From positions 2,967 through 35,910 of the forward strand of contig JBBTEL010000032.1 of NCBI GenBank assembly GCA_038042325.1: a DNA stretch of 32,944 bases. Reading direction: 5' to 3'. The position numbers and the translations under genes are program-made. The notes beneath the pieces were generated by a model. That model saw only the letters and a list, made by a program, of their open reading frames with translations, did not search any database and had not been told where the DNA came from. Of the stretch, positions 1,353 through 28,800 are shown piece after piece (position 1 is the stretch's first letter; the number at the start of each line of letters is the position of its first letter). The stretch comes from Candidatus Methylomirabilota bacterium. GTDB lineage: Bacteria > Methylomirabilota > Methylomirabilia > Rokubacteriales > CSP1-6.

Positions 1353-1919
1353 ATGTCTAAGCTCGTAGGAGGACTCGTCGTCCTGTTGGGCCTGCTCCCC
1401 GGCGCGGCGCTGGCCTCAGAAGGGGGCGGGAGCTTCATCAATCTGGACCGATCCCTCCTGATCCAAGTCGTCAACTTCGTTCTCCTCCTGTTTTTCCTCT
1501 GGAAGTTTCTCTACCGGCCCTTCCTGGCCAAGCTCGACGAGCGCTCCCAGGCGATCAAGAAGTCGCTCTCGGAGGCGCAGGCGGCGCAGGCGGAAGCCGA
1601 GCGCCAGCGGGAGGAGCACCGGAAGCAGCTCCAGGCGGCCTACGCCGAGGCCCAGTCGATTCGCGAGGCGGCGCTCAAGGAGGCGGCGGAGGAGCAGCGG
1701 CGGCTCGTGGAGGCCGCCCGCGCCGAAGCGGGTCGGCTCGTGGAGGGTGCGCGCGCGGAGGTCGAGCAGGATGTCCGGCGGGCCCGACAGGAGCTCCGCC
1801 AGGAGGTGGCCGACCTGGCGGTCTCGGCGGCGGAGCGGCTCATCCGGAAGAGCCTTCGCGGCGAGGAGCACAAGAAGATCGTCACCGACGCCATCGCCGA
1901 GCTCGAGCGGACCCGATGA
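1353..1919 (+). CDS. atpF: F0F1 ATP synthase subunit b
   Basis: The listed ORF starts at a TTG at 1293. The ATG at 1353 is preferred because GGAG lies about 10 nt upstream. N-terminal hydrophobic segments are followed by a long charged Ala/Glu/Arg-rich helix (AQAAQAEAERQREEH...), which is b-subunit architecture. Position is first in the atp cluster. Confidence 0.85.
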   Translation: MSKLVGGLVVLLGLLPGAALASEGGGSFINLDRSLLIQVVNFVLLLFFLWKFLYRPFLAKLDERSQAIKKSLSEAQAAQAEAERQREEHRKQLQAAYAEAQSIREAALKEAAEEQRRLVEAARAEAGRLVEGARAEVEQDVRRARQELRQEVADLAVSAAERLIRKSLRGEEHKKIVTDAIAELERTR

Positions 1920-1986
1920 TTGCGCCGGCAAAGCCGGCGCTCGAACAGGCGATGAGGCGAAACACGAGGAGGGAGAAGGTAGCCCG

Positions 1987-2532
1987 ATGAGGCAGCAGGA
2001 GGCCACGGCCAGGCGATACGCCAAGGCCCTCTTCGGCGTGGCGCGGGAGGCGGGACGGCTCGATGTGGTGGGCGACGAGCTGGCCCGGGTGCTCGAGGTC
2101 CTGGCCGCCGAGCGCCGACTCCAGGAATTTTTGAGCCGGCCCTGGATCAAGGGCGCGGCGAAGAAGTCGGTCACGATGGGGGTCGCTGAGCAACTGGGCT
2201 GTTCCCCGCTGGTCCGGGACTTCATCGGACTCGTGGCTCAGCGGGGACGCACGGATCATCTGACGGAGATCGCGCGGGCGTACCGGAGCCTGCTCGATGC
2301 CGAGCGCGGGCAGGTGCGTGCTCAGGTCCGGAGCGCGGTCGCGCTCGGCGAGGCGGAGCGGGGGCAGCTGGCCGCGTGTCTGGCGCGAATGGCGGGCAAA
2401 GAGGTCATCGTCGAGGCCCGGGTGGACTCGAGCCTCCTCGGGGGGTTCGTGGCGCAGATCGGCAGCCTCGTAGTGGACGGCAGTCTCGACGGGCAGCTCG
2501 CGCGGATGCGCGAGCGCCTCGTGAGGGGATAG
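1987..2532 (+). CDS. atpH: F0F1 ATP synthase subunit delta (OSCP)
   Basis: Internal ATG at 1987 of ORF 1747-2532. The N-terminus is MRQQEATARRYAKALFGVA... and the C-terminal block is VDSSLLGGFVAQIGSLVVDGSLDGQL, typical of delta/OSCP. It lies between atpF and atpA. Confidence 0.85.
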   Translation: MRQQEATARRYAKALFGVAREAGRLDVVGDELARVLEVLAAERRLQEFLSRPWIKGAAKKSVTMGVAEQLGCSPLVRDFIGLVAQRGRTDHLTEIARAYRSLLDAERGQVRAQVRSAVALGEAERGQLAACLARMAGKEVIVEARVDSSLLGGFVAQIGSLVVDGSLDGQLARMRERLVRG

Positions 2533-4062
<1,530 letters not shown>

Positions 4063-4271
4063 CCGTGCCGACAACCGTCGCACGACCCGCTTCGCGGGTG
4101 CCCGCCGAGGATCGCCTTCGGCGACTGATCAGCGCTCGGTCGTCGGCCATCGTTCCTTTGCGGGCACCGAGTCCCGCCGCAGGCGGGCTTGGTCGTACGC
4201 CTCCGGTGGCCTCCTCCCTCGGGCCTTGGGCTGCTCGGTTCTCGGCCCGGTTCGAACAGGACTGACCGGCT

Positions 4272-6582
<2,311 letters not shown>

Positions 6583-6587
6583 CTCCG

Positions 6588-7007
6588 GTGGCCGAGCCGC
6601 GCGCGCGCTTCGAGCTGGCGACGCCGAACCGCCTCGTTGTCTCCGAGGACGTGGATGAAGTGGTGGCGCCGGGCCTCCAGGGCTACTTCGGCGTCCTCCC
6701 GGGGCACGTGCCCTTCCTGACCTCACTCCAGAGCGGGGAAGTCTCCTACCGGATCGGCCGCACCGAGCAGTACCTGGCCGTGAGCGGCGGGTTCGCCGAG
6801 GTGCAGGGGGACCGCGTGACGATCCTCGCCGAGCGCGCCGAGCGGCCGGAGGAGATCGATCGCGAGCGGGCCCTACGGGCGCGCCAGCGCGCCGAGCGGC
6901 GGCTTCAGGGCAAGACCCAGGAAGAGATCGACTACACGCGCGCCCTGGCGGCGTTCTCCCGGGCGCTCGCCCGCCTGCAGGTGGCCGGCCGGGTTCCTTC
7001 GCGCTAG
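6588..7007 (+). CDS. atpC: F0F1 ATP synthase subunit epsilon
   Basis: GTG start 6 nt after atpD; 139 aa. Contains epsilon-type N-terminal beta-sandwich motifs (VVAPGLQGYFGVLPGHVPFLTSL). Its last ~20 codons lie inside the left copy of the direct repeat. Confidence 0.9.
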   Translation: MAEPRARFELATPNRLVVSEDVDEVVAPGLQGYFGVLPGHVPFLTSLQSGEVSYRIGRTEQYLAVSGGFAEVQGDRVTILAERAERPEEIDRERALRARQRAERRLQGKTQEEIDYTRALAAFSRALARLQVAGRVPSR

Positions 7008-7110
7008 GCCGCCGCCCCGGCCGCTCTGCACACTCTCCGGGGCAGCCCCGCCCCGGGCCTGCACAGCCCGGCGTGCACCCACCGGTCGCCCCGCCCGCCA
7101 TCTCTCCGTC
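6943..7110. repeat. Direct repeat, left copy (atpC 3' end plus 103 bp downstream)
   Basis: 168 bp that recur at 8819-9060. There are two alignable blocks (71 bp and 87 bp) with about 11 substitutions by manual count. The middle 10 bp (7014-7023) is replaced by 84 bp in the right copy. Confidence 0.9.
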
Positions 7111-7171
7111 GGTTGGGGCCGGTGGTGCTGGCCCCGAGTGAAGTTGAAGGCATTCTTACGCTGAAGACACC

Positions 7172-7198
7172 AAGGGGGCCGGAAGGTCCGACCCCCTT
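7172..7198. terminator. Hairpin downstream of the small minus-strand ORF
   Basis: AAGGGGG (7172-7178) pairs with CCCCCTT (7192-7198), with an inner CGGA/TCCG stem. It lies 26 nt beyond the stop of ORF 7224-7508. There is no clear U-tract. Confidence 0.35.
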
Positions 7199-7223
7199 AG
7201 ATGGGCAGCCCTGAGCTGTAGTT

Positions 7224-7508
7224 CTAGGCCATGTCGGTATTCACGTCGAGATCCGGCCCGTCGGGAACACCGTTCCGGTCATTACACTCCGGCTTGAAGC
7301 GGAAATACAAGGCGCGCTCCGCCCCATCACGATCTTCCTCTCCCGCGACAGCTGCCCACGCCACATAGCAGCTGAACTGATTCACCTTCCCGCGAACGCA
7401 TTTGTTGTCGCTGTGGGTAGCGTGTTGGTCGATGCGCTCGCGAAGCTTTTCGGCGAAACCATCTCCGATGACCCGGAAAATACCAGGAAATGAACGGGGT
7501 GTCAACAT
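7224..7508 (-). CDS. Hypothetical small protein (94 aa), divergent from fic
   Basis: ATG-initiated ORF with plausible codon usage inside the cassette. It has no recognisable motif and no clear Shine-Dalgarno sequence, so coding status is uncertain. Confidence 0.3.
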   Translation of the reverse strand: MLTPRSFPGIFRVIGDGFAEKLRERIDQHATHSDNKCVRGKVNQFSCYVAWAAVAGEEDRDGAERALYFRFKPECNDRNGVPDGPDLDVNTDMA

Positions 7509-7622
7509 CTAACACATCAGAGCCGATATTAGTGATAAAAAGCCTTTAAAATTAACATTATAGATGTATTATTTAATGGGCATTGACATAGAAACGACTG
7601 TATACTAGAACATACGATCAAG
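7509..7622. promoter_or_regulatory. AT-rich divergent promoter region of the cassette
   Basis: The most AT-rich stretch in the window. A candidate promoter is TTGACA (7583-7588), 17 nt, TAGAAC (7606-7611), reading toward fic. Confidence 0.3.
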
Positions 7623-8810
7623 ATGATCCGCTACGAGACACCTGGAAATTGGATTCGCTACGATGGCCCCGCCCTGACCAACGCGCTGGCCGAGGCGAAG
7701 TCCGTTGTTCTTTCCCTCAAGACGGTTCCGTACCAGCGGCGCTGGGTCGAGCGCCTGCAGCAGATGGAGCTAAAGCGTGAGGTTGCCGGTACCTCTCGCA
7801 TTGAAGGGGCTGAGTTCACGGAACGGGAACTTGATGCAGCGATGAGAGAGACGCCGGAACAACTTGTCACGCGCTCGCAGAGACAGGCCCATGCCGCGGT
7901 AAAGACATATAGGTGGATTTCGAAGCTCCCGCACGACAGACCGGTTACCGTCGAGCTAATTTGCGCGATCCATCGACAGATCGTTTCGGGAGCCGATGAC
8001 GATCACTGCCCACCGGGACAGTTACGAGAACGCGACCAAAATGTGAACTTTGGGAGCCCCCGCCATCGTGGCGCCGAGGGGGGACAGGAGTGTGAGCGGG
8101 CCTTCGCGGATTTCGCAAAGGCGATCCAACACGAGTATCGTGACCACGATCCCATTGTTCAGGCGCTCGCGGCCCACTATCACTTGGCGGCTATGCACCC
8201 GTTCCTTGATGGGAATGGCCGAACGGCCCGCGCGCTTGAGGCCCTGATGTTGCAGCGTGCCGGGTTAAGGGATACGGCCTTTATTGCGATGTCGAACTAT
8301 TACTACGACGAGAAGAGTGCGTACCTCGCCACCTTGGCGGAGGTCCGTCAAAAAGATCACGACTTAACATCGTTCCTTCAATTCGCGCTCAAGGGCGTCG
8401 CACTTCAGAGTCAACGGCTGTTGACGGAAATTCAGCATGAGATTTCCAAGGAACTTTTCCGCAACCTCATGGTGGATTTGTTCACGCGGTTGAAGACGCC
8501 GCGCAAGCGAGTTATTGCCGAACGCCAGCTGGAGATCTTGAGAATCCTTCTTGAGGTCGAGTGGATGGACTGGCAACAACTTATTAGACAGACATCGGGA
8601 ATCTATGCGTCCTTGAAGACCCCCCTGAAAGCGATTGTGCGAGACGTGAATAATCTAAGCAGCTTGAATGCGATCAGAGTTGAAAAACTGGAAGAAGGTG
8701 GGTACCGACTTCGTGTTCGGTTGGAATGGCCAACGGAAATTACGGAAACAGACTTTTTTAGAAAGGCAAGGGAGCTCCCCAAAGCGAAAACGCTTTCGTT
8801 CCTGCATTGA
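7623..8810 (+). CDS. Fic family protein (class II: N-terminal inhibitory helix, Fic core, C-terminal wHTH-like region)
   Basis: Canonical Fic active-site motif HPFLDGNGRTAR. An upstream (S/T)xxxE(G/N) inhibitory motif, TSRIEG, is present in the same polypeptide. 395 aa is typical of Fic_N plus Fic proteins. Confidence 0.9.
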   Translation: MIRYETPGNWIRYDGPALTNALAEAKSVVLSLKTVPYQRRWVERLQQMELKREVAGTSRIEGAEFTERELDAAMRETPEQLVTRSQRQAHAAVKTYRWISKLPHDRPVTVELICAIHRQIVSGADDDHCPPGQLRERDQNVNFGSPRHRGAEGGQECERAFADFAKAIQHEYRDHDPIVQALAAHYHLAAMHPFLDGNGRTARALEALMLQRAGLRDTAFIAMSNYYYDEKSAYLATLAEVRQKDHDLTSFLQFALKGVALQSQRLLTEIQHEISKELFRNLMVDLFTRLKTPRKRVIAERQLEILRILLEVEWMDWQQLIRQTSGIYASLKTPLKAIVRDVNNLSSLNAIRVEKLEEGGYRLRVRLEWPTEITETDFFRKARELPKAKTLSFLH

Positions 8811-8820
8811 ATCGTCTCCC

Positions 8821-8883
8821 CTGACGGCGTTCTCCCGGGCGCTCGCCCGCCTGCAGGTGGCCGGCCGGGGTCCGTCCCGCTAA
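8821..8883 (+). pseudogene. Duplicated 3'-terminal fragment of atpC (20 codons plus stop)
   Basis: Encodes LTAFSRALARLQVAGRGPSR*, against LAAFSRALARLQVAGRVPSR* at the real atpC end. No upstream atpC sequence is attached. Confidence 0.8.
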
Positions 8884-8895
8884 GCCGCCCGTTCT

Positions 8896-8969
8896 GTTCG
8901 AGCGCGGGCTTTGCCCGCGCAACCTAGTGGGGGAGGTCTCGGAGGGGGGCCGTCGAGGCCCCATCCGAT
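8896..8969. repeat. REP-like two-hairpin element, copy 2 (nested in the right repeat copy)
   Basis: Hairpin 1 is GCGCGGGC (8902-8909) / GCCCGCGC (8913-8920), the same stem as copy 1 with a different loop. Hairpin 2 is GGGGCC (8946-8951) / GGCCCC (8957-8962), with the stem retained using different bases. Confidence 0.6.
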
Positions 8970-9107
8970 TAGGCTCTGCACACTCTCCGGGGCAGCGCGC
9001 CCCCAGGCCTGCACAGCCCGGCGTGCACCTCCCGGTCGCCCCGCCCGCCATCTCTCCGTCACCGTGAGCGCCTCCTCCTGGCACGGCGATTGCCCCCACT
9101 CCGGGCC

Positions 9108-9494
9108 ATGGCCACGGTGCTCATCGTGGACGACGAGCCGCCGATCGTGGAACTGGTGCGCTTCACGCTGGAGGACGAGCACGTGCGTGTGCTCGAGGCG
9201 GGCGACGGTCTCGAAGCGCTGGAGGTGGCGTTCGCCGAGCGGCCCGACCTCATTTTTCTCGACGTCCAGCTGCCGCGCCTGAACGGCTTCGAGGTCTGCC
9301 GGCGGCTCCGGCTGGAGCCGGGGCTCGAGAAAACGAGGATCGTCATGCTCACCGCCGCCAGCCAGGCGCAGGACCTGGCCCGGGGGCGCGCCGCCGGGGC
9401 CGATCTCTACCTGACCAAGCCGTTTTCTCCCCTCCGGCTCCTCACCCTCGTGTCGTCCCTCCTTCCCGAGGTCCCGCTGTGGCCGGAGCGGTAG
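9108..9494 (+). CDS. Single-domain response regulator (CheY-like receiver)
   Basis: MATVLIVDDEP..., with the phospho-acceptor context DLIFLDVQLPRLNG, then VMLTA and LTKPF. The ATG at 9108 is preferred over the TTG at 9090. Confidence 0.85.
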   Translation: MATVLIVDDEPPIVELVRFTLEDEHVRVLEAGDGLEALEVAFAERPDLIFLDVQLPRLNGFEVCRRLRLEPGLEKTRIVMLTAASQAQDLARGRAAGADLYLTKPFSPLRLLTLVSSLLPEVPLWPER

Positions 9495-10174
9495 AGACCT
9501 CCGAGGATCTCCGGCTCGCCTACACGCGCCTCCGGGCGGCCTACCAGCAGTCCCTCCGCTACGCGTGCGACCTCAAGAGCATTCACGACCGGCTCCAGCG
9601 GGCGTTCCTCCAGAGCCTGCTGGGACTGGCCAACGCCCTGGAGGCGAAAGATCCGTACACGCGTGGCCACTCCGAGCGCGTCGCGGGCCTGGCCCAGCGA
9701 CTGGCCTGCCGCCTCGGCTTCTCCCCGAGCGAGGCGCGGGTCATCGCCCAGGCCGGGCTCCTCCACGACCTGGGGAAGATCGGGATCCCCGAGTCGGTCT
9801 TGCGCAAGCCCGGTCCCCTGACCGGGGAGGAGTGGGCGCTGATGCGCGAGCACCCCGTCGTGGGAGCGCGGATCGTGGCCCCACTCGAGTTCTTCTCGGA
9901 CGGCGCGCTGATCATCCGCCATCACCACGAGCGGCAGGACGGCAGCGGCTACCCGGCGGGGCTCGCGGGCGGAGCCATTCCGCTCGGCGCGCGTATCGTG
10001 GCGGTGGCCGATGTCTACGACGCCCTGACGTCGGAGCGCCCGTATCGCCGGAGCCTCGAGCGAATGGAGGCGCTCCGCCGGATCGAAGCCGCGGCCGAGC
10101 GTCTGCTCGACGCCGGGATCGTCTCCGCCTTCCTCCGGCTCGTGACCGATGGATGCCCTGACGCGCCCCTTTGA
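9479..10174 (+). CDS. HD-GYP domain phosphodiesterase (c-di-GMP/cyclic dinucleotide hydrolase family)
   Basis: Motifs HSERV, LLHDLGKIGIP and HHHERQDGSGYPAGL. GTG start overlapping the receiver gene by 16 nt. Confidence 0.88.
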   Translation: MAGAVETSEDLRLAYTRLRAAYQQSLRYACDLKSIHDRLQRAFLQSLLGLANALEAKDPYTRGHSERVAGLAQRLACRLGFSPSEARVIAQAGLLHDLGKIGIPESVLRKPGPLTGEEWALMREHPVVGARIVAPLEFFSDGALIIRHHHERQDGSGYPAGLAGGAIPLGARIVAVADVYDALTSERPYRRSLERMEALRRIEAAAERLLDAGIVSAFLRLVTDGCPDAPL

Positions 10175-10976
10175 CCCGGAACGGCCGCCCCACGGCCCAC
10201 TCGTTCCATTCCGGCTGGCGATTCTGGTCCCGTTTGGGGGTGCCGGCCTGCTCGCGGTGGCCGCCGGCCATGCCGGCGTGCTGTCCCTCGAGGTCATGAG
10301 GGTCGTCGGCGTGGGGAGTTTTCACGGCGGGCTCTTGGCGGCCTCGCTGGCAGCCGCCTGGGAGGGGTCGCCGGGCTGGGGCCCTGCGGCCGGGGGACTG
10401 GCGCTCTCCCTCCTGATCGCCGCCGGGGCCTGCGCCGCGCTGCCGTGGGGATGTCTCGGTTACGTTCTCCCGCCGATCCTGCTGGCGTGCGTGGCGCTCC
10501 GCCGCGGCGAGTGCCGCCGGATGGGGCTTGGGGCCGGGACTCCCTGGGCGGCCCTCGGCCTCGGCGCGGCCGTGGGAGGGTTTCTCGGCGCCCACCTGCT
10601 CCTGTCGGCCTCGCGGACGTTCGGCTACCCTGTCCGCGTGGGCCCGCTGGCCTGGCACCTGAGCGCCCTCCTCTACGACGTCGGCGCCAACGTCCTGTCG
10701 GCGGAGTGCTTCTTCCGCGGGACGCTGTTCAACCGCTGGCAGCGGCGGTGGGGCTTTTGGCCGGGGGCCCTGGCGGCGACCGGGCTCTCGCTCCTCCGGT
10801 ATCTCGTGGATCCCGCCCTGCCGCGCGTGGTGGAGTTGATGATTGGAGCGGTGTTCTACCTCGCGCTCCTGTCGCTCTCGGGCTGCGCGCTCCTCTGGTA
10901 TTCGGGGAGCCTCCTGCCGTCCCTGGCCGCCGCGCTCGCGTTCTTCGGGGCGTACCGGACGCTCCAGGTGCGGTGA
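10149..10976 (+). CDS. Polytopic membrane protein, CPBP (CAAX protease/Abi)-like but with degenerate catalytic motifs
   Basis: About 7-8 hydrophobic segments. Motif 1-like AECFFRGTLF (versus EExxxR). The positions expected for FxxxH and HxxxN read SLLRYLVD and AAALAFFGAY. Overlaps the HD-GYP gene by 26 nt; the start is uncertain. Confidence 0.5.
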   Translation: MDALTRPFDPERPPHGPLVPFRLAILVPFGGAGLLAVAAGHAGVLSLEVMRVVGVGSFHGGLLAASLAAAWEGSPGWGPAAGGLALSLLIAAGACAALPWGCLGYVLPPILLACVALRRGECRRMGLGAGTPWAALGLGAAVGGFLGAHLLLSASRTFGYPVRVGPLAWHLSALLYDVGANVLSAECFFRGTLFNRWQRRWGFWPGALAATGLSLLRYLVDPALPRVVELMIGAVFYLALLSLSGCALLWYSGSLLPSLAAALAFFGAYRTLQVR

Positions 10977-11040
10977 GTCCTTTGCGGTCCGGCGATGCGT
11001 TCCTCGTAAGTAACCCCGGGGGCGATCGAGCCGAGCGAGG

Positions 11041-12558
11041 ATGAGTGGGCCCGGGATCCTCCTCGGCTTCGGCGCCGTCACGGCCGCCCTCGTCTGGATG
11101 GACGCCGGTCCCGCGTCGGGGTTCCGCCACCTGTACCTCGTGCCGACGCTCTGGGCGGCGCTCCGCTTCGGCGGGCTCGGCGGCGGGAGCGGAGGGCTCC
11201 TGGGCGCGCTCCTCTACGCGCCGTTCGTCCTGCCCGCGATCGAGCGAGACGGCCTGACGGCGGACGCGGTCGAGGGCTTGATCAGCCTCGGCCTGTTCCT
11301 CTTTGTGGGCAGCGTGACGGGGGCCCTGGCCCGCCGGGCGTGGACCCGGGCGGCCCGGGTTCAAATGCTCCTGTCCCTCCAGGGCGCGCTGACCGGCGGC
11401 GAGGGGCTTCGAGATCTCCTCGGAGAGGTGGTCCGGCAGCTTCAGACGGCTCTGGAAGCCGAGGCCGTGGCGATCGTTCTGGGGGGTGGCGCGGAGCCGC
11501 CCGTTGCGGCGCGGGGGGCGGAGGGAGCCGGCGCGGTCGCGGAAGATTCCGCGGCGAGGTGGGTGGTGAGGGCGGGGAAGAGCCTCTTCGTGAGCGATCT
11601 GGAGAGCGACCGGCGGTTCGGCGCGCCCTGGCGCAGCGCGGGGCCGCCCCGCCGCGCCCTGCTGGTGCCGCTCGGCGCCCGCGAGGGGCGGCTGGGGGTG
11701 CTGGTGATCGAGCGGCGCGGCGAATTCCCCCGCGAGCTGCGTGCGGCCGTCGAGACGCTGGCCCTCGCGCTGGCCCTGGGGATCGACAATGCCTGTCTCG
11801 CGGAACGCCAGCGCCGGTTCGCGGAGGAACTTGAGCAGAAGGTGGCCGCGGCGACCCGCCGGCTTCGGGAGCTCGATCGCGCGAAATCCGACTTCGTCTC
11901 CATCGTGTCCCACGAGCTCAGAACCCCCCTGACCTCGATCCAAGGATTCAGCGAGCTGCTCCTGACCCGGCCGCCGGCGGCGGAGGGGGCGCGCCGCTGT
12001 CTGGAGACGATCCACCGGGAGGCCGAGCGGCTGGGGCGCATCGTCGCCGACTTGCTCGACCTCTCGCGGATCGAGAGCGGGCGGGAGCGCGCGCTCGGGA
12101 CGGCGCCCCTGGCCCTGGGCCCGCTGGTGGACGCCAACGTGCACCTCTTCGCGTCCCAGAGCGCCGCCCACACGATCGAGCCGGACCTCCCCGCCGCGCT
12201 CCCCCCGGTCCTCGCCGATCACGACGCGCTGGACCGGGTGCTGAAGAATCTGCTCGCCAACGCCATCAAGTATTCGCCGAAGGGCGGTCCGATCCGGGTC
12301 TGGGCGCGCGTGGCCGAGGAGTCGGGCCGGGTCGAGCTCGGCGTGGAGGATCGAGGGGTCGGGATCCCCGCCGCGGCCCTCCCCCGGATCTTCGAGCGGT
12401 ACTGCCGCGTGCCCCATCCGGACACCGCCGAGGTGCGGGGGCTCGGGCTGGGGCTCGCCCTGGTCAAATCCCTCGTGGAGGCGCAGAGCGGCCGAATCCG
12501 GGTCGAGAGCCAGGTGGGAGTCGGGAGCCGCTTCATCGTGAGTCTCCCGATTGCGTAA
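11041..12558 (+). CDS. Sensor histidine kinase (membrane DUF4118-like N-terminus, GAF, HisKA, HATPase_c)
   Basis: H-box SHELRTPLTSIQGF, N-box NLLANAIKYSP, G-boxes DRGVGI and GLGLGLALV. A GAF-like segment (SLFVSDLESDRRF...LLVPLGAREGRLGVLVIERR) follows three or four N-terminal hydrophobic helices. Confidence 0.88.
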   Translation: MSGPGILLGFGAVTAALVWMDAGPASGFRHLYLVPTLWAALRFGGLGGGSGGLLGALLYAPFVLPAIERDGLTADAVEGLISLGLFLFVGSVTGALARRAWTRAARVQMLLSLQGALTGGEGLRDLLGEVVRQLQTALEAEAVAIVLGGGAEPPVAARGAEGAGAVAEDSAARWVVRAGKSLFVSDLESDRRFGAPWRSAGPPRRALLVPLGAREGRLGVLVIERRGEFPRELRAAVETLALALALGIDNACLAERQRRFAEELEQKVAAATRRLRELDRAKSDFVSIVSHELRTPLTSIQGFSELLLTRPPAAEGARRCLETIHREAERLGRIVADLLDLSRIESGRERALGTAPLALGPLVDANVHLFASQSAAHTIEPDLPAALPPVLADHDALDRVLKNLLANAIKYSPKGGPIRVWARVAEESGRVELGVEDRGVGIPAAALPRIFERYCRVPHPDTAEVRGLGLGLALVKSLVEAQSGRIRVESQVGVGSRFIVSLPIA

Positions 12559-19996: not shown

Positions 19997-20000
19997 CTGC

Positions 20001-20027
20001 CTGATCACCCGGTGATGATCAGCTGAT
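20001..20027. promoter_or_regulatory. Operator-like TGATCA-type inverted repeats just upstream of the RHH gene
   Basis: CTGATCA (20001-20007), 8 nt, TGATCAG (20016-20022), overlapping a perfect 10-bp palindrome ATCAGCTGAT (20018-20027). Located 5-30 nt upstream of the ATG at 19996. Confidence 0.35.
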
Positions 20028-20074
20028 AGCACACGCGATGCCAATGAGAAACACCTGCAAAAACAAGTGGTTGT

Positions 20075-20133
20075 ATTATAGCCGGGGGGCAATTGACGGG
20101 ACAGACTGTCATCGTGTTGCCGAATTGACGGGA
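20075..20133 (-). promoter_or_regulatory. Candidate -10 box plus two 11-bp direct repeats for the RHH/kinase operon
   Basis: The minus strand reads TATAAT at 20080-20075. A perfect direct repeat AATTGACGGGA occurs at 20091-20101 and 20123-20133 (32-bp spacing). The proximal copy overlaps the -35 position, where no good -35 hexamer exists. Confidence 0.35.
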
Positions 20134-20167
20134 GGAAATCCGAGGGGACCTAGGGTATTGTTAGAGA

Positions 20168-20254
20168 TGGTGCCGAAGCGGGGACTCGAACCCCGACACC
20201 CTTGCGGGCACTAGACCCTGAATCTAGCGCGTCTGCCAATTCCGCCACTTCGGC
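20168..20254 (-). tRNA. tRNA-Leu (anticodon CAG), CCA encoded
   Basis: Minus strand: GCCGAAG-TG-GCG-GAATTGGCAGA-CGC-G-CTAGA-TTCAGGG-TCTAG-TGCCCGCAAGGGTGT-CGGGG-TTCGAGT-CCCCG-CTTCGGC-A-CCA. This folds as a class II cloverleaf with a long variable arm. Confidence 0.93.
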
Positions 20255-20302
20255 TCGGATATCCTACTTATCATACGGACAGGGACCAGGCAAGGGGACA
20301 GG

Positions 20303-20761
20303 ATGGCAATCGAGCGGGTGGTGGTCACGAACCGGAAGGCCACCCACCTCTACGAGATCTTGGAGACGTTCGAGGCGGGTCTGGTCCTCCGGGGGACGGA
20401 GGTGAAGTCCCTCCGGGAGGGGCACGCCAACTTCAAGGACAGCTACGCCCTGGTGGAGGGCGGGGAGCTCTGGCTCGTGGGCTGCCACATCAGCCCGTAT
20501 CACCACGGGTCGGACGCCAACCACGACCCCGAGCGCCGGCGTAAGCTCTTGCTCCACCGGGGGGAGATCAACCGGCTCTTGGGCAAGGTCCAGGAACGCG
20601 GGTTGACTCTGGTTCCCCTGCGGCTATACTTTAAGAACGGTCGGGCGAAGCTCGAGCTGGGCCTGGGGCGCGGGCGGAAGCTGCACGACAAACGCCGGGC
20701 CATCCGCGAGCGGGAGATGCGGCGGGAGCTGGACAAGGCCGTCCGCTCCCGCGAGCGCTAG
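20303..20761 (+). CDS. smpB: SsrA-binding protein SmpB
   Basis: 152 aa, with NRKATHLYEILETFEAGLVLRGTEVKSLR and a basic C-terminal tail. Immediately upstream of ssrA. Confidence 0.95.
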   Translation: MAIERVVVTNRKATHLYEILETFEAGLVLRGTEVKSLREGHANFKDSYALVEGGELWLVGCHISPYHHGSDANHDPERRRKLLLHRGEINRLLGKVQERGLTLVPLRLYFKNGRAKLELGLGRGRKLHDKRRAIREREMRRELDKAVRSRER

Positions 20762-20769
20762 GTCTTAGA

Positions 20770-21124
20770 GGGGGTGACTGGCTTCGACGGGGATCAACGA
20801 GGCGCAGGCGGCATCTCGAGGTTCTCTCTCCTCGTAAAACCGAGAGAACGGTTATAGCTGCCGACACTCAGCTAAGTCTGGCCGCCTAAGAACGGCTAGC
20901 GTCCCGCCGGGTTGAGCCATCAGGGCCTGGACTTGGGGCGCCATACTCTGGTGGCTGGTCCTGAACCCGGCCTCGGGGTGAGGGGCGAGATCTTTTGAGG
21001 CTGGCGGCCCGGGGATCCTGTCGGTAGGAGCCTCGGGTGGCGAGACTGAAAATACCGACTATTGATGTAGAAGCCTGACGCTGAGGGTTTCCGGACGAGG
21101 GTTCGATACCCTCCACCTCCACCA
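20770..21124 (+). ncRNA. ssrA: tmRNA (ssrA), one-piece
   Basis: The 5' end GGGGGTGACTGGCTTCGACGGGG pairs with the 3' end CACCTCCACCA, including a G3-U wobble. T-arm GGGTTCGATACCC. Internal tag frame GCT GCC GAC ACT CAG CTA AGT CTG GCC GCC TAA (20857-20889) gives AADTQLSLAA*. Confidence 0.9.
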
Positions 21125-22213
21125 TTGCGACCAATTCGAACCACCCTCCGGGGCCTCGAGGAGATCGAGGACCCGGAGGGTGGTCTCGGATTGGTAGTAC
21201 GGCTTTCCTACTTGCGGGGTGACCGGCACCAACCGTATCGGCCCGAGGATCCGACGTAGAATCAGGGCGGACCGGGGTGTCTCGCGCTCAAGAACTTCCT
21301 GCAGCTTACCTAGCCGTTCCGCAATCCATTCGATCGGTGGAGCCTTAAACAGCTCCCCCGCTGAAGTGTCCAGAGCCTGGAGCTCCTGACGGAGCGATGT
21401 GGCCCGTTGCTCGGCAGCGCCAAGGGCTTCTCCAAGTGCACGCGTTGCCTTCCCGTCCCCAATGAAAGCGATGTAGTTGGCGATGCGGCGCTCCTCAGTG
21501 GCCAGGGTGGCGCGCTTGAGCTCTGTTTCCTCGGGCAGATGAGCGTGAAGTCGTTTCACCTCAGCCTCTACCCGCTCCAGCACATAGCGGAGCGACGGGA
21601 GGTCCCGGAGCTGCTCCTGGACGGCGGCGAGCACTTTCTTCTCCGTGAGGCGTCGTGAAACCAGCAGCCTATTGCCGCAGGCGCTCAGTGAAGCCTTCAG
21701 ACAGCCGTAGTAGCCACTGCCCTTGCCGCTCACCTGACCGACGGCGCCGCCACACTCCCCGCAACGGAGGGCTCCCGACAGCAGGTGAGGGGGATTCGTT
21801 TCGACATAGCTACGTTGCCGATCCCCGGGAGTTTTCTCAGTGCGTCGTATTGGCCACGTGCGGTCTATCGCCTGCCAGCGGGCGATGACCTGGTCCCATG
21901 TCTTTTGGGAGACGAGACGAAACTCTTCGTTTTCGACGACGTGCCATTCACTGGCAGGCTTGAGAACCCGTCGCCTCCGGCCAGTTCTCGGATCGCGGCG
22001 TGTCTCAGTCCGGTTCCAGATCCAGTGGCCGATGTATTTTTCGTTCTTGAGGATCCGGCTCACCGTCGAGGTTGACCACCCCTTCTGGTTTCGCCGGCGA
22101 CCAGGCACCCCTTCCGCGTTGAGAGACTTGACGATAGTCTTGATCGCCTTGCCCTCACCGAATTCCCGGAAGACGCGTTGGACGATTGCTGCCTCTGATG
22201 CCTCGACCACCAT
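21059..22213 (-). pseudogene. Large serine recombinase lacking its N-terminal catalytic (resolvase) domain
   Basis: Recombinase-domain blocks (EAAIVQRVFREFGEGKAIKTIVKSLNAEGVP...WSTSTVSRILKNEKYIGHWIWN), a zinc ribbon (LRCGECGG...GYYGCLKASLSACGN) and a coiled-coil tail are present. In-frame upstream sequence has resemblance only back to GRPRPDGY. That upstream stretch has no canonical start codon before the in-frame TAG at 22355-22357, and no Ser-nucleophile domain. The ORF tail (..RWRVSNPRPE..) is the reverse reading of the ssrA T-arm. Confidence 0.75.
21140..21184 (+). terminator. Long hairpin after ssrA
   Basis: ACCACCCTCCGGG (21140-21152) pairs with CCCGGAGGGTGGT (21172-21184), with a nested CCTCGA/TCGAGG stem. 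It starts 16 nt after the tmRNA CCA. There is no obvious U-tract. Confidence 0.5.
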
Positions 22214-22354
22214 GCGGTAACCGTCAGGGCGTGGTCTGCCCGTTGGCCGTCGAAGGGACTCACTAAGCCAGATGAGATATTTCGAGACCTGGCGCCAGCG
22301 TCTCTGAGGAATATAGGACGAGATGACGAATAAGATGTGGTTCCATCCCGGGAA

Positions 22355-22747
22355 CTATTGAGTTTTGCATAAATAATGGAAGTGTCTCACCGCCATGGCA
22401 GATCCGAGCCGTAGAGACACGACCAGAGGAGATCTTGGGAGCCTCGTATTCTGCGGATCACGCCACGAAGGACCCTTCCCGCCGGGCGCGAAGTTTGAGG
22501 CGTCATCAATGGCCACGACAACACATCGGCAGCCTGGATGAAACGGAGGGACATCGCGCGACCAATGTTTCACTTCTCGCCGATCGAGAGCATCGCAGAC
22601 CGGGCAGGGTGCGCCAGTATCCCGTCTCGTGGTTTTGACGCGGACGTTTTGTGGCAGAAAAGCAAAGACTTCAGAGAAACCTTCCCGAAGCTTGGGTCGC
22701 GTATGAAGCCATATCACCGGGGTCTCGACGCCGGATGCGTCAGCCAT
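22355..22747 (-). CDS. Phage MuF/SPP1 gp7-like head-morphogenesis domain fragment (C-terminal motif only)
   Basis: CPVCDALDRR...(13 aa)...PPFHPGCRC matches the conserved C-terminal Cys motif of MuF-family proteins. The ORF is only 130 aa, versus more than 300 aa for intact members. The region is lower in GC. Confidence 0.4.
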   Translation of the reverse strand: MADASGVETPVIWLHTRPKLREGFSEVFAFLPQNVRVKTTRRDTGAPCPVCDALDRREVKHWSRDVPPFHPGCRCVVVAIDDASNFAPGGKGPSWRDPQNTRLPRSPLVVSLRLGSAMAVRHFHYLCKTQ

Positions 22748-22801
22748 GAAGGCCGGGTGGCGGCGACGTCACTCTGACACGAGACGAAGACTGGCCTCGG
22801 C

Positions 22802-25800
22802 TCAGCCGAGGACGATTCGGACGCGATGTGTTTTCCGGTCATCGGCGAGCATGATGCTGAGCTCGCCGTCGAGGGAGACGCCATCAACCTCCACTGACGA
22901 CACTCCCCGGGACACACCCTGTGTGTTCTCCACGACGATGTCATAACGCGCGGAGCGATAGCGGAACACCATTTCGAAGCCGTGCCACGCACGCGGGATA
23001 CACGGGTCTACCACGAGCCGCGCGCCACGCAGCCGGAACCCGAGAATCGACTCCAGCCCGGCCCGATACATCCAACCCGCTGATCCCGTGTACCACGTCC
23101 AGCCCCCGCGGCCGACGTGCGGCGGCTCGGCGTAGACGTCCGCCGCGACGACGTAGGGCTCGACCTTGTAGCGTTGAACGCCCGCTTCCGTGCTGGCGTG
23201 GTTGATCGGATTCAACATCGCGAAGAGTTCGACGGCCTTATCCCCGTCGCCGAGCGCCGCGAAGGCGATCGCCGACCAGATCGCCGCATGCGTGTATTGC
23301 CCGCCGTTCTCCCGGACGCCGGGCAAATACCCCTTGATGTAGCCGGGCTCCAGGGGCGTGTGGTCGAACGGCGGCGTCAAAAGCAACACGAGGCCGTCTG
23401 CGCGACGCACGAGGTGTTCGTCGACAGCCGCCATGGCGCGCGCTCCGCGTGCCGGGTCGGCCGCCGCCGAGATCACGCTCCAGGACTGCGCGATCGAATC
23501 CACGCGGCATGCGTCGTTGACGGCGGAGCCGAGCGGCGTCCCGTCATCGAAGTAGGCGCGCCGATACCAGTCGCCGTCCCAGGCCTCGTGTTCGAGCGAC
23601 TCCTTCAGCGCGCTCACGTAGCTCCGCCACTTCTCAGCGCGCTCGCCCTCCCCGCGCGCGTCGGCCAGCTTCGCCCATTCGGACAGAACTGCGTGAAGGA
23701 ACCACCCGAGCCAGACGCTCTCGCCCTTCCCTTCGGCACCCACTTCGTTCATCCCATCGTTCCAATCCCCCGTGCCCATCAGAGGCAGGCCGTGAGTTCC
23801 GGCCGTCAGGCTGTGGTCGAGCGCGCGCGCGCAGTGCTCGAAGAGCGTGCCCCGCTCTTCGGAGGCGCGGGGCTCGAAGTACGACTCGGGCTGTCCGACC
23901 ACGAGCTTCGGGCCATCGAGGAAGGGAACGATCTCGTCGAGGACAGTGCCATCGCCGGTGACCTCGACATACTGGGCGACGACGTACGGGAGCCAGAGCG
24001 GGTCATCGGAGATCCGGGTTCGGACGCCGCGACCGGTGGGCGGGTGCCACCAGTGCTGGACGTCGCCCTCGACGAATTGCCGCGCCGCGGCCCGGAGCAC
24101 ATGCTGCCGCGCCAGCTCGGGCTCGGACACCGCGAGTGCCATCACGTCTTGAAGCTGATCGCGAAACCCGTACGCCCCACTGGCCTGATAGAACGCCGAC
24201 CGCGCCCAGACCCGACACGCAAGCGTCTGGTACAGCAGCCACCGGTTGAGCAGTATGTCCATGGCCCGGTCGGGCGTCGCGACCTGCAGCGTGCCGAGCA
24301 CATCGTCCCAGCGCTCGCCGACAGCCCGCAAGACCGCCGCCACGTCGCGGGTCCGGTAGCGAACGATCAGCTCCCTCGCCTGCTCGGGGCTCGCCGCCTC
24401 GCCGAGGAAGAACACGACCTCCGCCCGTCCTCCAGCGGGCAGCTCGATCGTCGCCTGTAGCGCGCTGCACGGATCGAGGCCGGCGCCGACCCGTCCCGAG
24501 AGCCGGTCTCTTCGCGCGAGCGCCGCTGGATAATCCGGCGTGCCGTGACGCCCGAGAAATTCCGTCCGGTCGGCGGTCCACGCCGTTTGAGTCCCGCCGA
24601 GGTCGGCAAACGCGACGCGAGCGCCGAATTCGCGGCTCCACGCGTTACGCGCGAACATCGCGCCCGTCTTCTCGTCGATCTCGGTGACGACGAACGGCGC
24701 GGCGGCGCTCCGCGACACGCCGAGGACCCATTCGACGTAGGCGGTCACGGACAGCCGCCGTGCCCGGCCCGACGAGTTCGTCAGAGTGAGACGCGAGATC
24801 TTGATGGAGTCGTCGAGCGGCACAAGCTGCAGAAGATCGAGCGAGACGCCGTGCGAGACGTGTTCGAAGCGAGTGTAACCCTGCCCATGCCGGATGACGT
24901 AGGGCGAGGTCCCAGAGCGAATCGGGAGCGCCGTCGGACCCCATAGATCTCCGGTCTCTTCGTCCCGGACGTAGATCGTCTCGCCCGGCGGGTCGCTGAC
25001 CGGATCGTTCGACCAGGAGGTGAGCTGGTTCTCGCGGCTGTTGACCGACCACGTGTACCCCGAACCCGACTCGGAGACCTGGAAGCCGAAACTCGGATTC
25101 GCGATCACGTTGAGCCACGGGGCCGGCGTCCACCGCCCCTCGCCGAGGATCGTCACGTACTCGCGTCCATCCGCCTCGAAGCCGCCGAGGCCGTTGAAGA
25201 GCTCGAGATCCGGCTGGGGGATCGCCACGTCCGGCGTCGGCTTCGTCGCCGCCGGCCGCCGTGGCTGAGCGACCGGAGCGGCGTCGGGTCGCTGCGCACG
25301 CGTCATCTGCTCGGCGAGCGTCCCGCGCTGGCTCGACAGCACCGCGCGCGCCACGGCCTGTAGCACGTCACGTTGCGGCGCCGTCATGCGGTCCGCTCGG
25401 ACGATATACACGTTGCCGTGCGGCCCGTGTCCATCATGGGGTTCCGCCGACTGGCTCGTGCGGAGGAGCGTCTCCAGCAACGACTGCAGATCCTGAACGT
25501 AGGACGGCGCGCGCTCGTTCAGGATCACCAGATCGACCGCGAGCTGCTTGATCCGCCAGTACTCGTGCGCGCGGAGGAGCTGCCGCACGATGGCCACGTC
25601 CTCGGGCTCGTGGATCTGAACCAGCACGATCGGGAGGTCGCCGGAAATCCCGTGAACCCACAGCGCGTCGGGACCGCCCGTGTGACGCGCGAGCACGTCC
25701 GCGGAGGGCCGGAGCGTCCGGTCCGAGTAGAGCACGCGGCTGGCGAGGCTCTGGAAGAGGTGCGCCTCGTCGGGGCCGATGCCGAGGTGGTGCAGTTGAA

Positions 25801-28800
25801 CCTGCGCGTGCGTCCACGCCAGCATCGCGGCGCGGTCGAACGTCGCCGCATTGCGATACTTCTCGGCGAGGCCGAGGGCCTCCGCGCGCGACGGCGCGAC
25901 GAGCGTCGAGAAGGTGACGCGCACGGTGACGCCCGGCGGAAGCCGGACGCGGCGTCGGAGGCTCACGATCGGATCGAGCACCGCGCCGACGGTGTTGGAG
26001 AGGGGCTGGCCGTCGATCACCGCAGCGGGGGTTCGGATCCCGCGCCCGCGGCCGACGAACCGGGCGCGGTCAGTCTCCCATTGCAGTTGGCCAACCGTCT
26101 CGCCTTCGACGACAGCCACGTGGGCCAGCCAGACCTGGGCCTCGGCGCGGGAGCGCGGCCGGCGTGTCGCCAGCAGAGTGTCGAGTTCGGGGACGCACTC
26201 CGTCTCCACGCTCAGATTGGAGAACGCCGGGTGGGCCGCGTCCGCCGCCGCCGGCGCCAGCACGACTTCGGCGTACGACGTGAGCTCGACTTCCCGGCTC
26301 TTCGTCCCGGAATTCGTGAGCGATACGCGACGCACCTCGGCATCGTCCTCGGGCGACACGATCACCTGGAGCGTGGTGCGGATGGCGCGGTCTCGCCGGA
26401 CGATCTCCGCCCGATCCTCGGAGAACGTGACCTCGTAACTGTCCGGCTCGCCTCCGCGCGGCTGGTACCCGGCCGACCAGCTCTCGCCACTGTCGACGTC
26501 GCGAAGGAACACGTACGATCCCCACGCGTCGCGCGTGACGTCTTCCCGCCAGCGCGTGATCGCGAGATCGCGCCAGCGGCTGTATCCCGAGCCCGCCGTC
26601 GTCAGCATCACCACATATCGTCCGTTCGAGAGCAGATGTGTGCGCGGCATCGAGCCGTGCGGCGAGGTGAAGTGCCTCACGACCGGCGGGATGAACTCGC
26701 GCACGTCGCCGACGGCCTGCACCTCTTCCGCGCGCGGCCGGGCGACCGCCACGTCACGCGGCGTCCGTTCCTGCAGCAGCAGCTCGGTGGCCTGGACGAT
26801 CGGCTCGGCATGGAAGCGCGCGCGCATCGCGCCGTCGTGGAGGGCGTTCGCGATCGCGACGACCACCATTCCCTGGTGGTGCGCCATGTAGGCACGCACC
26901 ACCGCGAGCTCGGCACGCTCCGGAAGCCGGGGCGCGGTGTAGTCGAGCGCCTCGTAGAAGCCGTAGGCGCCGCTGGCCCCGGCCGCCGCCAAGCGCCGGA
27001 AGTTTCGAACCGCGGCCGTTGGATCGATCATGGCCGCCAGTCCCGTCGCATAGGGCGCGATGACGACGTCCTCGCTGAGTCCGCGTCGCAGCCCGAGCCC
27101 CGGCACACCGAAGCTCGAATACTGGTAGGTCATCTCCAGGTCGCGCGCGTTGTAGCCGGACTCCGACACACCCCACGGCACGCCGCGCTCGGCGCCATAC
27201 GTGATCTGCCGGCCGACGACGAGCCGGGATGTCTGCTCGAGCAGGCTTCCCGCCGGCGCGCGCATGACGAGCGCCGGCATCAGGTATTCGAACATCGATC
27301 CCGACCAGGACACGAGCACGGAGTCCCGTTCTACCGGTGTGAGGGCACGGCCCAGGCGGAACCAGTGCGAGACGGGGACGTCGCCCTTGGCGATCGCGAC
27401 GAAGCTCGCGAGACGGGCTTCCGATGCGAGGAGGTCGTACCGACCGGGGTCGAGGCTGCCGTCCGTGACGCGGTACCCGATCGCAAACAGCTTCCGCATT
27501 GGATCGAAGAGAAAGCCGAAGTCCATGGCGCCGACCATCGCCTGCGCGCTCCGGGCGAGGATCGTGAGGCGACGAATGAGCGTGTCGGGCATGTCGAGGT
27601 CGCGCGCGTGGCTTTCGACCGTGGCGCAGAGCGCTTCCGCCCAGACGAGGACGTCCGTCTGCACGCTCTGAGGATCCTCCTCGACCAGCGCTCGCGCGAT
27701 GCCCACCACCGTGTGAGCGTGTGCTTTCAGCATCGCGAGTCGAGAACCCCACTCGGACGAATCGTGCGGGGGCTCCTGGACTGCCGCCGTGACGGCGTCG
27801 ATGGCTTCGTCCAGGCGCCCGCGGATGACCGTGCGCGGGGGGGCATCGCCGGCCGTCACGAGGGTCGAGAGGCGGACGAGCAGGGCGGTGTCTTCGATCC
27901 CGGCGAGCGCCGCGCGGTCGAGGAGCGGACGGTCGATCATCTCTTCACAGGCGTGCCCGAGCGCGATGAGATGACCGGCGAGATTTCCGCTGTCGACCGA
28001 CGACACGTACTTCGGGTCGAGAGGATGGCAGGCCTTCGTGTCGTACCAGTTGTAGAAGTGGCCGCGGAAGCGCTCGAGGACGTTCATCGTCCCAAGCGTG
28101 GCCTCGAGACGCTCGACGGCGTCGAGGGTGCCGAGCCAGCCGAAATCGCGTGCAGCCACCGTGGACAGCAAATACAGGCCGATGTTCGTGGGCGACGTGC
28201 GATGCGCCACCGCCGGGCTCGGCGTTTCCTCGAAGTTGTCGGGCGGCAACGCGTGGTCTTCGGGACCGACGAACGTCGCGAAGAACCGCCACGTCCGGCG
28301 CCCGACCAGCCGGAGGGCTCGCGCATCCTCCGACGAGAGCGGCTGGGCGCTCGCAGTGCGCCGCGGCACGCTGATCCATCGAGCCACCGCGGGCGACGCG
28401 GCCCACAGCATGAGAAAGGGCAGCGCGGCGGGCCAGGCCTCTGGCCGCCCCCACGCGACGGCCACCGCCGCGGCGGCGGCGAGCGCGACCCCGCCGCCCA
28501 TTCGACGGTAGAAGCCAGGGAGATCGAGACGGAGACCGGCTTTCGCCTGCGCCGCGGTCACCCATTCCAGCAGCCGGCGATGCGTGACATACACGCGGAC
28601 GAGCGTCCGCACGATTGCGTCACTCATCAGCCAGGCCTGGTGCGTCAGCATCGTGATCGTGAGTCCGATCTGCGAGACGCCCAGGACGATGTCTCTGCCT
28701 ACCGCGCGGATATGGCTGCGCTTCGAAATACCGCGCCCGCGAGGGATCAATCCCCTGAGAACCGGCAAGAGCGAGGGCACGGCGATGGTCGCAAGGATGA

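Follow-up and report, generated by a model that had tools for sequence, protein, structure and literature searches.

The island at the 3' end of fda in Streptococcus thermophilus is an example of a cis-mobilizable element (CIME), a kind of island derived from integrative and conjugative or integrative and mobilizable elements. CIMEs are defined by flanking direct repeats that resemble attachment (att) sites and by the absence of genes for integration or transfer (PMC5704250). In Escherichia coli, e14 and phage 21 are found in icd, with a displaced icdC fragment, and excision recombines the two copies, as outlined in PMC13626634 (citing Hill et al. 1989). Here we describe a related arrangement in a 32,944-nucleotide stretch of DNA (the window; all coordinates are positions within it) from a Candidatus Methylomirabilota bacterium (contig JBBTEL010000032.1, assembly GCA_038042325.1), where a low-GC cassette carrying a gene for a Fic-domain protein lies between atpC, encoding the epsilon subunit of ATP synthase, and a response regulator gene, and is bracketed by two diverged copies of the atpC end. 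The cassette is a recent insertion, and the history that we favor for it, with a probability of roughly 0.5, is entry by one reciprocal Campbell-type crossover between a circle and a chromosome like that of the empty-site contig L004.

The closest analogue in layout is e14/phage 21 at icd. As far as the cited part of that paper describes it, the likeness lies in an insert at the 3' end of a housekeeping protein gene and in diverged direct repeats that duplicate the gene terminus, one being functional and one displaced. However, e14 brings its own integrase, is excised after SOS induction, has its crossover inside icd and supplies the working 3' end, whereas the cassette encodes no recombinase, its crossover would lie past the stop codon, and the displaced incoming end is the natural allele of a sister strain. 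The likeness to CIMEs consists in att-like direct repeats around the island, the lack of mobility genes and the position at the end of a protein-coding gene. In contrast to the cassette, whose repeats of 168 and 242 bp represent strain-level homology, CIMEs have short att cores and coexist with integrase-bearing elements at the same site; no cognate integrative and conjugative element, integrative and mobilizable element or integrase was found at the atpC site in about 25 related Rokubacteria/Methylomirabilota loci, and a Fic-carrying element that we did find (in L015) sits elsewhere. With Campbell-type integration, as of suicide plasmids, the cassette shares the duplication of a homologous segment around the insert and copies that are reciprocal chimeras of donor and recipient. 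Known cases are mostly laboratory constructs or backbone plasmids, whereas a natural 1.95-kb circle without a replicon would have acted here. As a defence islet that is not autonomous, the cassette belongs to a general kind already known and represents neither a new element class nor a new attachment-site system. An earlier note, made from the sequence of this DNA alone, had considered the site and the minimal cassette unusual, a view that does not hold given that 3' ends of protein genes as integration sites and integrase-less, repeat-flanked islands such as CIMEs are already known.

The intact atpC gene (6588-7007, + strand; PF02823, 3.4e-28; PF00401, 2.9e-16) retains its native C-terminus, an 'L-type' allele identical in sequence to the atpC of L004. 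The left repeat copy (6943-7110, 168 bp) starts in codon 119 of this gene and takes in its final 20 full codons and its stop codon together with 103 bp of downstream sequence. To the right of the right copy (8819-9060, 242 bp) follow the response regulator receiver gene (9108-9494, + strand; PF00072, 6.6e-29) and a gene for an HD-GYP-type protein. Boundaries were set by a repeat search and by MAFFT alignment of the two copies, which share a block 1 of 71 bp (6943-7013 = 8819-8889; 93% identity, 5 substitutions) and a block 2 of 88 bp (7023-7110 = 8973-9060; 93% identity, 6 substitutions), the substitutions of both blocks summing to 11. The middle between the blocks measures 9 bp in the left copy (7014-7022) and 83 bp in the right copy (8890-8972), so that a 74-bp indel separates the two. 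All other direct repeats found by the repeat search in 6000-10000 are at most 26 bp long and weaker, and repeats of the atpC end of such length and identity are far beyond chance. The earlier note had reported the recurrence of 6943-7110 at 8819-9060 and the content of the left copy, both of which are confirmed; its 71-bp block, its 11 substitutions and its identity of about 93% likewise stand, while its 87-bp block and its middles of 10 and 84 bp were each off by one.

The cassette itself (7111-8818, 1708 bp) has a GC content of 54.4% against 68-72% in the flanks, falling to 30.7% in the 114 bp upstream of the Fic gene, and is foreign DNA. An AT-richer interior with an AT-rich promoter region of its own had been noticed by eye, and the computed values agree. 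A listing of all open reading frames (ORFs) of at least 40 aa in 7111-8818 yielded only the Fic gene and a divergent remnant of a GIY-YIG nuclease gene, and none of these ORFs matched a recombinase, integrase or transposase in Pfam, NCBIfam or PHROGs; nor did 7111-7223 hold an integrase remnant. In the repeat search, neither a short target duplication nor an inverted repeat linking one cassette end to the other turned up, the cassette had no match in plasmid or phage collections, and an Rfam scan of 6500-9500 at E-values up to 1 returned no structured RNA. This is the content that the earlier note had described: Fic, a small divergent ORF, and no integrase, transposase or terminal inverted repeats. 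Several kinds of element were considered and set aside. A transposon or insertion sequence does not fit, as there is neither a transposase nor a terminal inverted repeat and the flanking repeats, of 168 and 242 bp, are not identical. Models based on dif/Xer (integrative mobile elements exploiting Xer, IMEX) or on integron attC sites were dropped along with transposon models, since no dif-like or attC-like structure, terminal inverted repeat or short target duplication is present. Direct repeats do flank the cassette as in an integrase-bearing integrative element, but it has no recombinase and the atpC tail is of the recipient type. The cassette is a non-autonomous islet, and a composite, partly decayed fragment of defence-island-type DNA.

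Exact-protein look-ups retrieved other assemblies of the Hainich groundwater Rokubacteria population, and contigs of this same population (L004, L100, L101 and L098) carry the empty site, in which atpC is followed by one copy of the segment and by the regulator about 150 nt past the stop codon. The site is also empty in the nearest species representative (L017, a Candidatus Rokuibacteriota metagenome-assembled genome (MAG) with an AtpC identity of about 80-82%). The regulator follows atpC in all of the roughly 25 related Rokubacteria/Methylomirabilota loci that hold both genes, and at none of these sites is there a Fic gene, a GIY-YIG gene or the cassette. The ancestral order that the earlier note had supposed, atpC and then the regulator, is thereby shown, and the empty site that it had proposed to look for exists in the named contigs; the case that it had named as speaking against an insertion, an arrangement common to all relatives, does not apply, since both the population and the nearest species hold empty sites. 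Two scans of metagenome contigs of the Joint Genome Institute (JGI) added nothing at this level: an exact-pattern scan with a conserved 22-mer of block 2 had no hit, and a scan with the regulator protein gave only relatives of at most 75% identity and no new strain-level alleles.

The way in which other assemblies break at this locus is itself informative. In MAG GCA_964358695.1, contig L003 ends exactly at 7110 and L001 starts at 7056, an overlap of 55 bases; L002, a 2031-bp node, starts at 7056 and ends at 9086, which is 55 nt past the TC/CA variant described below. Such breaks with 55-mer overlaps would be the branch points of a de Bruijn graph in which occupied and empty alleles from one sample meet. 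In L001 and L002, from two other assemblies, the cassette continues into the right copy and on into the regulator flank. The left end of the cassette in both is joined to a 'CA'-type block 2, while the right copy is of the 'TC' type, and therefore two distinct copies flank the cassette in independent assemblies. Taken together, the empty sites, the breaks and the distinct copies leave no room for a duplication fixed long ago or for a mere chimeric join; the arrangement did not arise in assembly, and the insertion is recent.

The right copy is chromosomal DNA of a sister strain and not an attachment site evolved by an element, because its tail is a natural AtpC allele and its middle a repeat of the host. 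Its block 1 is a displaced atpC 3' end of a 'B-type' allele. The substitutions there comprise two non-synonymous and two synonymous changes and a change of the stop codon from TAG to TAA, with frame and stop preserved, the pattern that a working gene end should show. The AtpC variants P0187 and P0188, which are intact and belong to the same 90% cluster, end in ...LTAFSRALARLQVAGRGPSR, which is exactly the tail of the right copy; the empty-site contig L100 carries the B-type end, and P0188 combines a window-type body with a B-type tail. The 83-bp middle (8890-8972) is a two-hairpin element resembling repetitive extragenic palindromic (REP) sequences. This REP-like repeat of about 80 bp forms two GC-rich hairpins, TTCGAGCGCGGGC-N3-GCCCGCGCAACC, then GGGGGAGGT.TCGGA..GGGGC...GCCCC.TCCGA, and occurs in the window in full at 103-182, partially at 1918-1945 (- strand) and at 8890-8972, three copies against none expected by chance. 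Its presence in the atpC-regulator spacer varies between strain alleles. Contig L103 starts within such an element directly upstream of block 2, and therefore a native allele with the REP-like insert exists. What the earlier note took for the element's own diverged copy is thus the natural allele of a co-occurring strain (P0187, P0188, L100) with a host REP-like middle.

The origin of the two copies becomes clearer when they are compared with the natural haplotypes over 159 alignable positions. Taken unaltered, the left copy is best matched by L101, at 0/159 mismatches, and the right copy by L004 or L100, at 7/159. If the left part of the left copy is joined to the right part of the right copy, the resulting reconstruction of the recipient site has 2/159 mismatches to L004, only the 'TC' at the equivalent of 7080-7081; the opposite combination, which reconstructs the incoming copy, has 1/156 to L100. 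The switch between haplotypes falls in 7023-7046 (= 8973-8996), 24 bp that are identical in both copies and lie 16-39 bp past the atpC stop. The left copy is of the recipient type to the left of this interval and of the donor type to its right, and the right copy is the reverse. Identity between the window and L004 is 100% over 6275-7046; L101 and L100, by contrast, diverge from the window by about 4% upstream. Every variant other than 'TC' is a segregating natural allele. Measured against these haplotypes, the two copies are reciprocal chimeras with one switch interval, which is the signature of a single Campbell-type crossover.

In the history that we propose, the incoming molecule would have been a circle of about 1.95 kb, consisting of the cassette (7111-8818) and a 242-bp segment of a co-occurring sister strain, namely an L100-like B-type atpC end, the 83-bp REP-like insert and the intergenic block. 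Such a circle may have been released by recombination between the flanking repeats in the donor strain. A crossover with an L004-like Rokubacteria chromosome would have been resolved in the identical 24 bp of 7023-7046, past the atpC stop codon, duplicating the homologous segment on either side of the cassette while atpC and the region upstream of the regulator stay intact. Because the crossover lies past the stop codon, the incoming atpC end would never have been needed for gene integrity. Recombination was most likely carried out by the host homologous recombination machinery, and would depend on RecA, because the cassette encodes no recombinase and because the homology reaches at least 150 bp to the left and 64-88 bp to the right of the switch and consists of natural alleles. 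A single crossover is also the most economical history, since a linear double crossover needs both exchanges in the same 24 bp.

The earlier note had arrived at much of this interpretation. A recent insertion and a Campbell-type single crossover with a copy-bearing circle are well supported by the reciprocal chimeras, the one switch interval and the empty sites. Its further proposals of gene rescue, of a copy belonging to the element and of a dedicated site call for correction. It had suggested that the element's copy kept the essential gene intact, yet with the crossover in 7023-7046 atpC keeps its native end and it is the incoming end that is displaced. Nothing shows the atpC terminus to be a dedicated attachment site, and Fic genes in seven other contexts lack flanking repeats.

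Several observations weigh against entry by a single crossover. The left copy is in itself a perfect natural haplotype (L101, 0/159), so that 7111-9060 could possibly have been inserted at 7110|9061 with no internal crossover. The 'TC' at 9030-9031 is private, occurring in no sampled empty-site haplotype; either the exact recipient is unsampled or the position changed later. The empty-site contigs are short and of low coverage (e.g. 984 bp at coverage 5). A circular junction was not observed, the ends of L002 being non-identical, so that it represents the integrated form. Homologous recombination within 88 bp at 93% identity is possible but inefficient. In addition, the event that would first have created the duplication, by joining the right end of the cassette to an internal position of atpC, lacks an explanation in this model, and the private 'TC' and the route of transfer likewise fall outside what a single crossover explains.

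Other histories can be imagined for this locus. In one of them the cassette would be a decayed, CIME-like or cis-mobilizable element: a larger element placed by a tyrosine or serine recombinase acting at a core in 7023-7046, whose integrase and other genes were later deleted or had only been provided in trans, so that attL, cargo and attR are left. A repeat-flanked island without an integrase answers to the definition of a CIME (PMC5704250), though the repeats here may be plain homology and not att sites of a recombinase, and the switch point does fall within one short interval; the homology around that point, however, at least 150 bp to the left and 64-88 bp to the right, is made of sister-strain alleles and a REP-like insert, unlike a phage-type attachment site (attP) maintained by an element, and the incoming atpC end was not used in rebuilding the gene. 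Decay is evident in the 5'-truncated GIY-YIG gene, but there is no trace of an integrase at 7111-7223. Although a 76%-identical Fic is the cargo at the end of an element with integrase, HTH_17 and Prim-Pol genes in L015, the DNA homology to L015 is limited to the Fic ORF, Fic homologues elsewhere are without flanking repeats, and the atpC site is free of a related element in the roughly 25 loci examined. A truncated large serine recombinase is present elsewhere in the window (21059-22213), which also speaks for this origin; all considered, we regard it as unlikely. No more weight attaches to the idea that the duplication was made at the first capture of the cassette, in a B-type strain, by template switching resembling microhomology-mediated break-induced replication (MMBIR) or fork stalling and template switching (FoSTeS), or by repair of a staggered break, and that the entire repeat-cassette-repeat block then passed between strains as linear DNA, by double crossover in or close to the repeats. 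This would need no pre-existing circle for the duplication, and the population is highly recombinogenic, as seen from mosaic haplotypes and from AtpC variant P0188, with its window-type body and B-type tail. The between-strain difference of 3-4% in the left flank against 0.1-0.5% in the right also speaks for this history. Even so, for the strain of the window both crossovers would have had to hit one and the same 24-bp interval in a recipient with a single copy of the segment, sparing kilobases of flanking homology, and no B-type strain with the cassette was sampled, the Fic cluster having a single member that occurs in this population only. It is a doubtful alternative for these reasons.

Far less probable is an assembly artefact, either a foreign Fic contig joined chimerically or a collapse or expansion of repeats. 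The data are metagenomic, with several strains per sample, and other assemblies break exactly at the repeat edges; yet the 55-mer overlaps at these breaks are what true allelic branching predicts, in three independent assemblies the cassette runs into the right copy and from there, in L001, into 12 kb of the same chromosome, and block 2 at the left end in L001 and L002 is 'CA' where the right copy is 'TC'. An ancient duplication fixed in the lineage, with Fic as a long-resident neighbour, would account for copies that are 7% apart and differ by a 74-bp indel. It is the least credible of these histories given unoccupied sites both within this population and in the nearest species, the natural segregation of all variants save 'TC', the foreign composition of the cassette and its absence from the related loci examined.

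The gene that makes up most of the islet (7623-8810, + strand) encodes a SoFic-like Fic-domain protein of 395 aa (PF02661, 5e-16). It holds both an HxFx(D/E)GNGRxxR catalytic motif, HPFLDGNGRTAR (aa 192-203, 8196-8231), and an (S/T)xxxE(G/N) inhibitory motif near the N-terminus, TSRIEG (aa 57-62, 7791-7808). Within the Fic family, this pairing marks a class II, self-inhibited AMPylase. With SoFic of Shewanella oneidensis and human FICD it shares the Fic fold family, the HPFLDGNGRTAR motif and the N-terminal TSRIEG, and the PADLOC model of SoFic matches it at 4.7e-49 over residues 10-357. However, its identity to the solved SoFic is low, the top PDB sequence matches (protein adenylyltransferase 9vjc, SoFic and FICD) being distant at E of about 4e-11 by phmmer, and it scores 67 bits with the NCBIfam SoFic equivalog, far under the cut-off of 550. 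From its motifs and family matches, the protein would be a SoFic-like class II AMPylase and a candidate single-gene anti-phage defence. The AT-rich promoter region in front of the gene (7509-7622, + strand, 30.7% GC) contains a TTGACA box at 7583-7588 that is kept upstream of Fic homologues elsewhere, with a similar TTGACA-N17 hexamer layout in L005 and L016.

This Fic family has more than 3000 relatives, many of them at 70-78% identity and occurring as low-GC islets, often on contigs of about 2 kb. The cluster of the present protein has a single member, on contigs of the Hainich population only, and a scan of viral contigs returned just one homologue, at 55% identity. Flanking direct repeats are absent around Fic homologues in seven other contexts (L005, L015, L016, L196, L198, L199 and L202), and the repeat-flanked architecture is therefore a one-off at the atpC locus and not a property of the Fic family. 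DNA similarity between the window and homologous Fic loci is likewise confined to the Fic ORF, and a recurrent mobile Fic element was rejected on these two grounds. Other settings of the gene may be mentioned here. The L015 element (1727-7188, 10154-11925) consists of an integrase, an HTH_17 gene, a Prim-Pol gene, two genes of unknown function and, last, the 76%-identical Fic, and adjoins an aldehyde:ferredoxin oxidoreductase gene; a second Fic copy there is split by an rve-family insertion sequence, and ParE/antitoxin genes lie between the two copies. In other Rokubacteria (L005-L014, at about 5850-7240; L016, 900-2510), Fic stands alone as a low-GC gene, preceded by an AT-rich TTGACA promoter of its own. 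One of these islets is wedged between a gene for a 421-aa protein and glgE in a trehalose/glycogen operon, and another adjoins a tRNA-like sequence. The foreign DNA of the single-gene islets stops no more than about 10 bp from the Fic stop codon.

The second ORF of the cassette (7224-7508, - strand, 94 aa) abuts the Fic promoter. It had no match in Pfam, NCBIfam, PHROGs or PADLOC, and a word-based search found only the ORF itself. An exhaustive phmmer search recovered 65 relatives of 120-130 aa that match PF01541 (GIY-YIG), of which the ORF covers only residues of about 45-128. Alignment shows that the N-terminal 40 or so residues, including the GIY strand, are missing, that 'FRVIGDG' stands in place of 'FYVGQ', and that the ...AERALY...P.CND tail is kept. 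As there is also no coding sequence upstream of it in any frame, the ORF is what remains of a small GIY-YIG nuclease gene that has lost its 5' end. An AlphaFold model from the single sequence proved uninformative, with a predicted local distance difference test (pLDDT) score of 41. The neighbourhoods of the relatives are accessory or defence-like, including a helix-turn-helix (HTH) gene with an M78 peptidase, HicA, UvrD, a SMODS/CBASS-like cluster (cyclic oligonucleotide-based antiphage signalling system) and IS66. Two other roles were considered for this ORF. It is not an antitoxin but, by phmmer, a 5'-truncated member of the GIY-YIG family, and an active homing endonuclease was rejected because the GIY strand is missing.

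The atpC-regulator spacer shows some further features. CTGCACA ... CTGCACA-N7-GTGCAC(C) motifs at 7026-7080, within block 2, are kept in the nearest species (L017, 4422-4476), where they form a perfect CTGCAC-N8-GTGCAG inverted repeat. This is probably an operator or another regulatory site for the downstream response-regulator operon, and the insertion duplicates it. In a subset of Rokubacteria (L018, L021, L022, L024-L026, L117, L119 and L124), the gap between atpC and the regulator contains an extra gene of about 1 kb for a secreted protein with cytochrome P460 and cupredoxin parts (L025, 4469-5260), which makes the spacer a place where gene content changes recurrently. The co-occurring strains, represented by L098, L100 and L101, differ from the window by 3-4% to the left of the site (5000-6942, atpD/atpC), whereas the difference to its right (9061-12000, from the regulator and HD-GYP onward) is only 0.1-0.5%. 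Because of this difference, the atpC-regulator junction looks like a recombination or sweep boundary in the population.

Farther along the window, smpB (20303-20761; PF01668) and tmRNA (20770-21124) are followed by a minus-strand ORF of 384 aa (21059-22213) whose Recombinase and Zn_ribbon_recom domains are those of a large serine recombinase, but which lacks the catalytic resolvase domain. It overlaps the 3' end of tmRNA by about 65 bp, and GC content dips to 57-63% over 20000-23000. The ORF is probably what is left of an element that had integrated at ssrA; no direct repeat was found flanking this remnant at 20303-22213. As the sole recombinase-like gene in the window, and one without its catalytic domain, it was rejected as a source of integrase in trans for the cassette. 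A very large ORF of 2818 aa (22802-31258, - strand) with glycoside hydrolase family 94 and glucoamylase domains is unrelated to the cassette. We presume that it resembles cyclic beta-1,2-glucan synthase.

The Fic islet provides a natural example, in uncultured groundwater Rokubacteria, in which public metagenome assemblies show the occupied site, several empty sites and both parental haplotypes. The position of the crossover can be narrowed down to 24 bp, and the value of the case lies in this unusually complete population record rather than in a new mechanism. On the practical side, it carries a warning that contig breaks with overlaps of k-mer length at such repeats reflect presence/absence polymorphism between strains and not poor sequence. 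For the organism, a candidate anti-phage gene was gained beside an essential operon, which was left undamaged, and this took place without an element-encoded recombinase. A bolder reading, which we consider improbable, is that such islets move repeatedly by means of a patch of host homology: an islet would loop out, travel as a tiny non-replicating circle with its host patch and re-enter sister strains, each entry occurring by host homologous recombination at the matching locus and leaving reciprocal-chimera repeats behind. If true, this would be a general route, not recognised until now, for the spread of small defence genes within recombining populations without any dedicated mobility enzyme.

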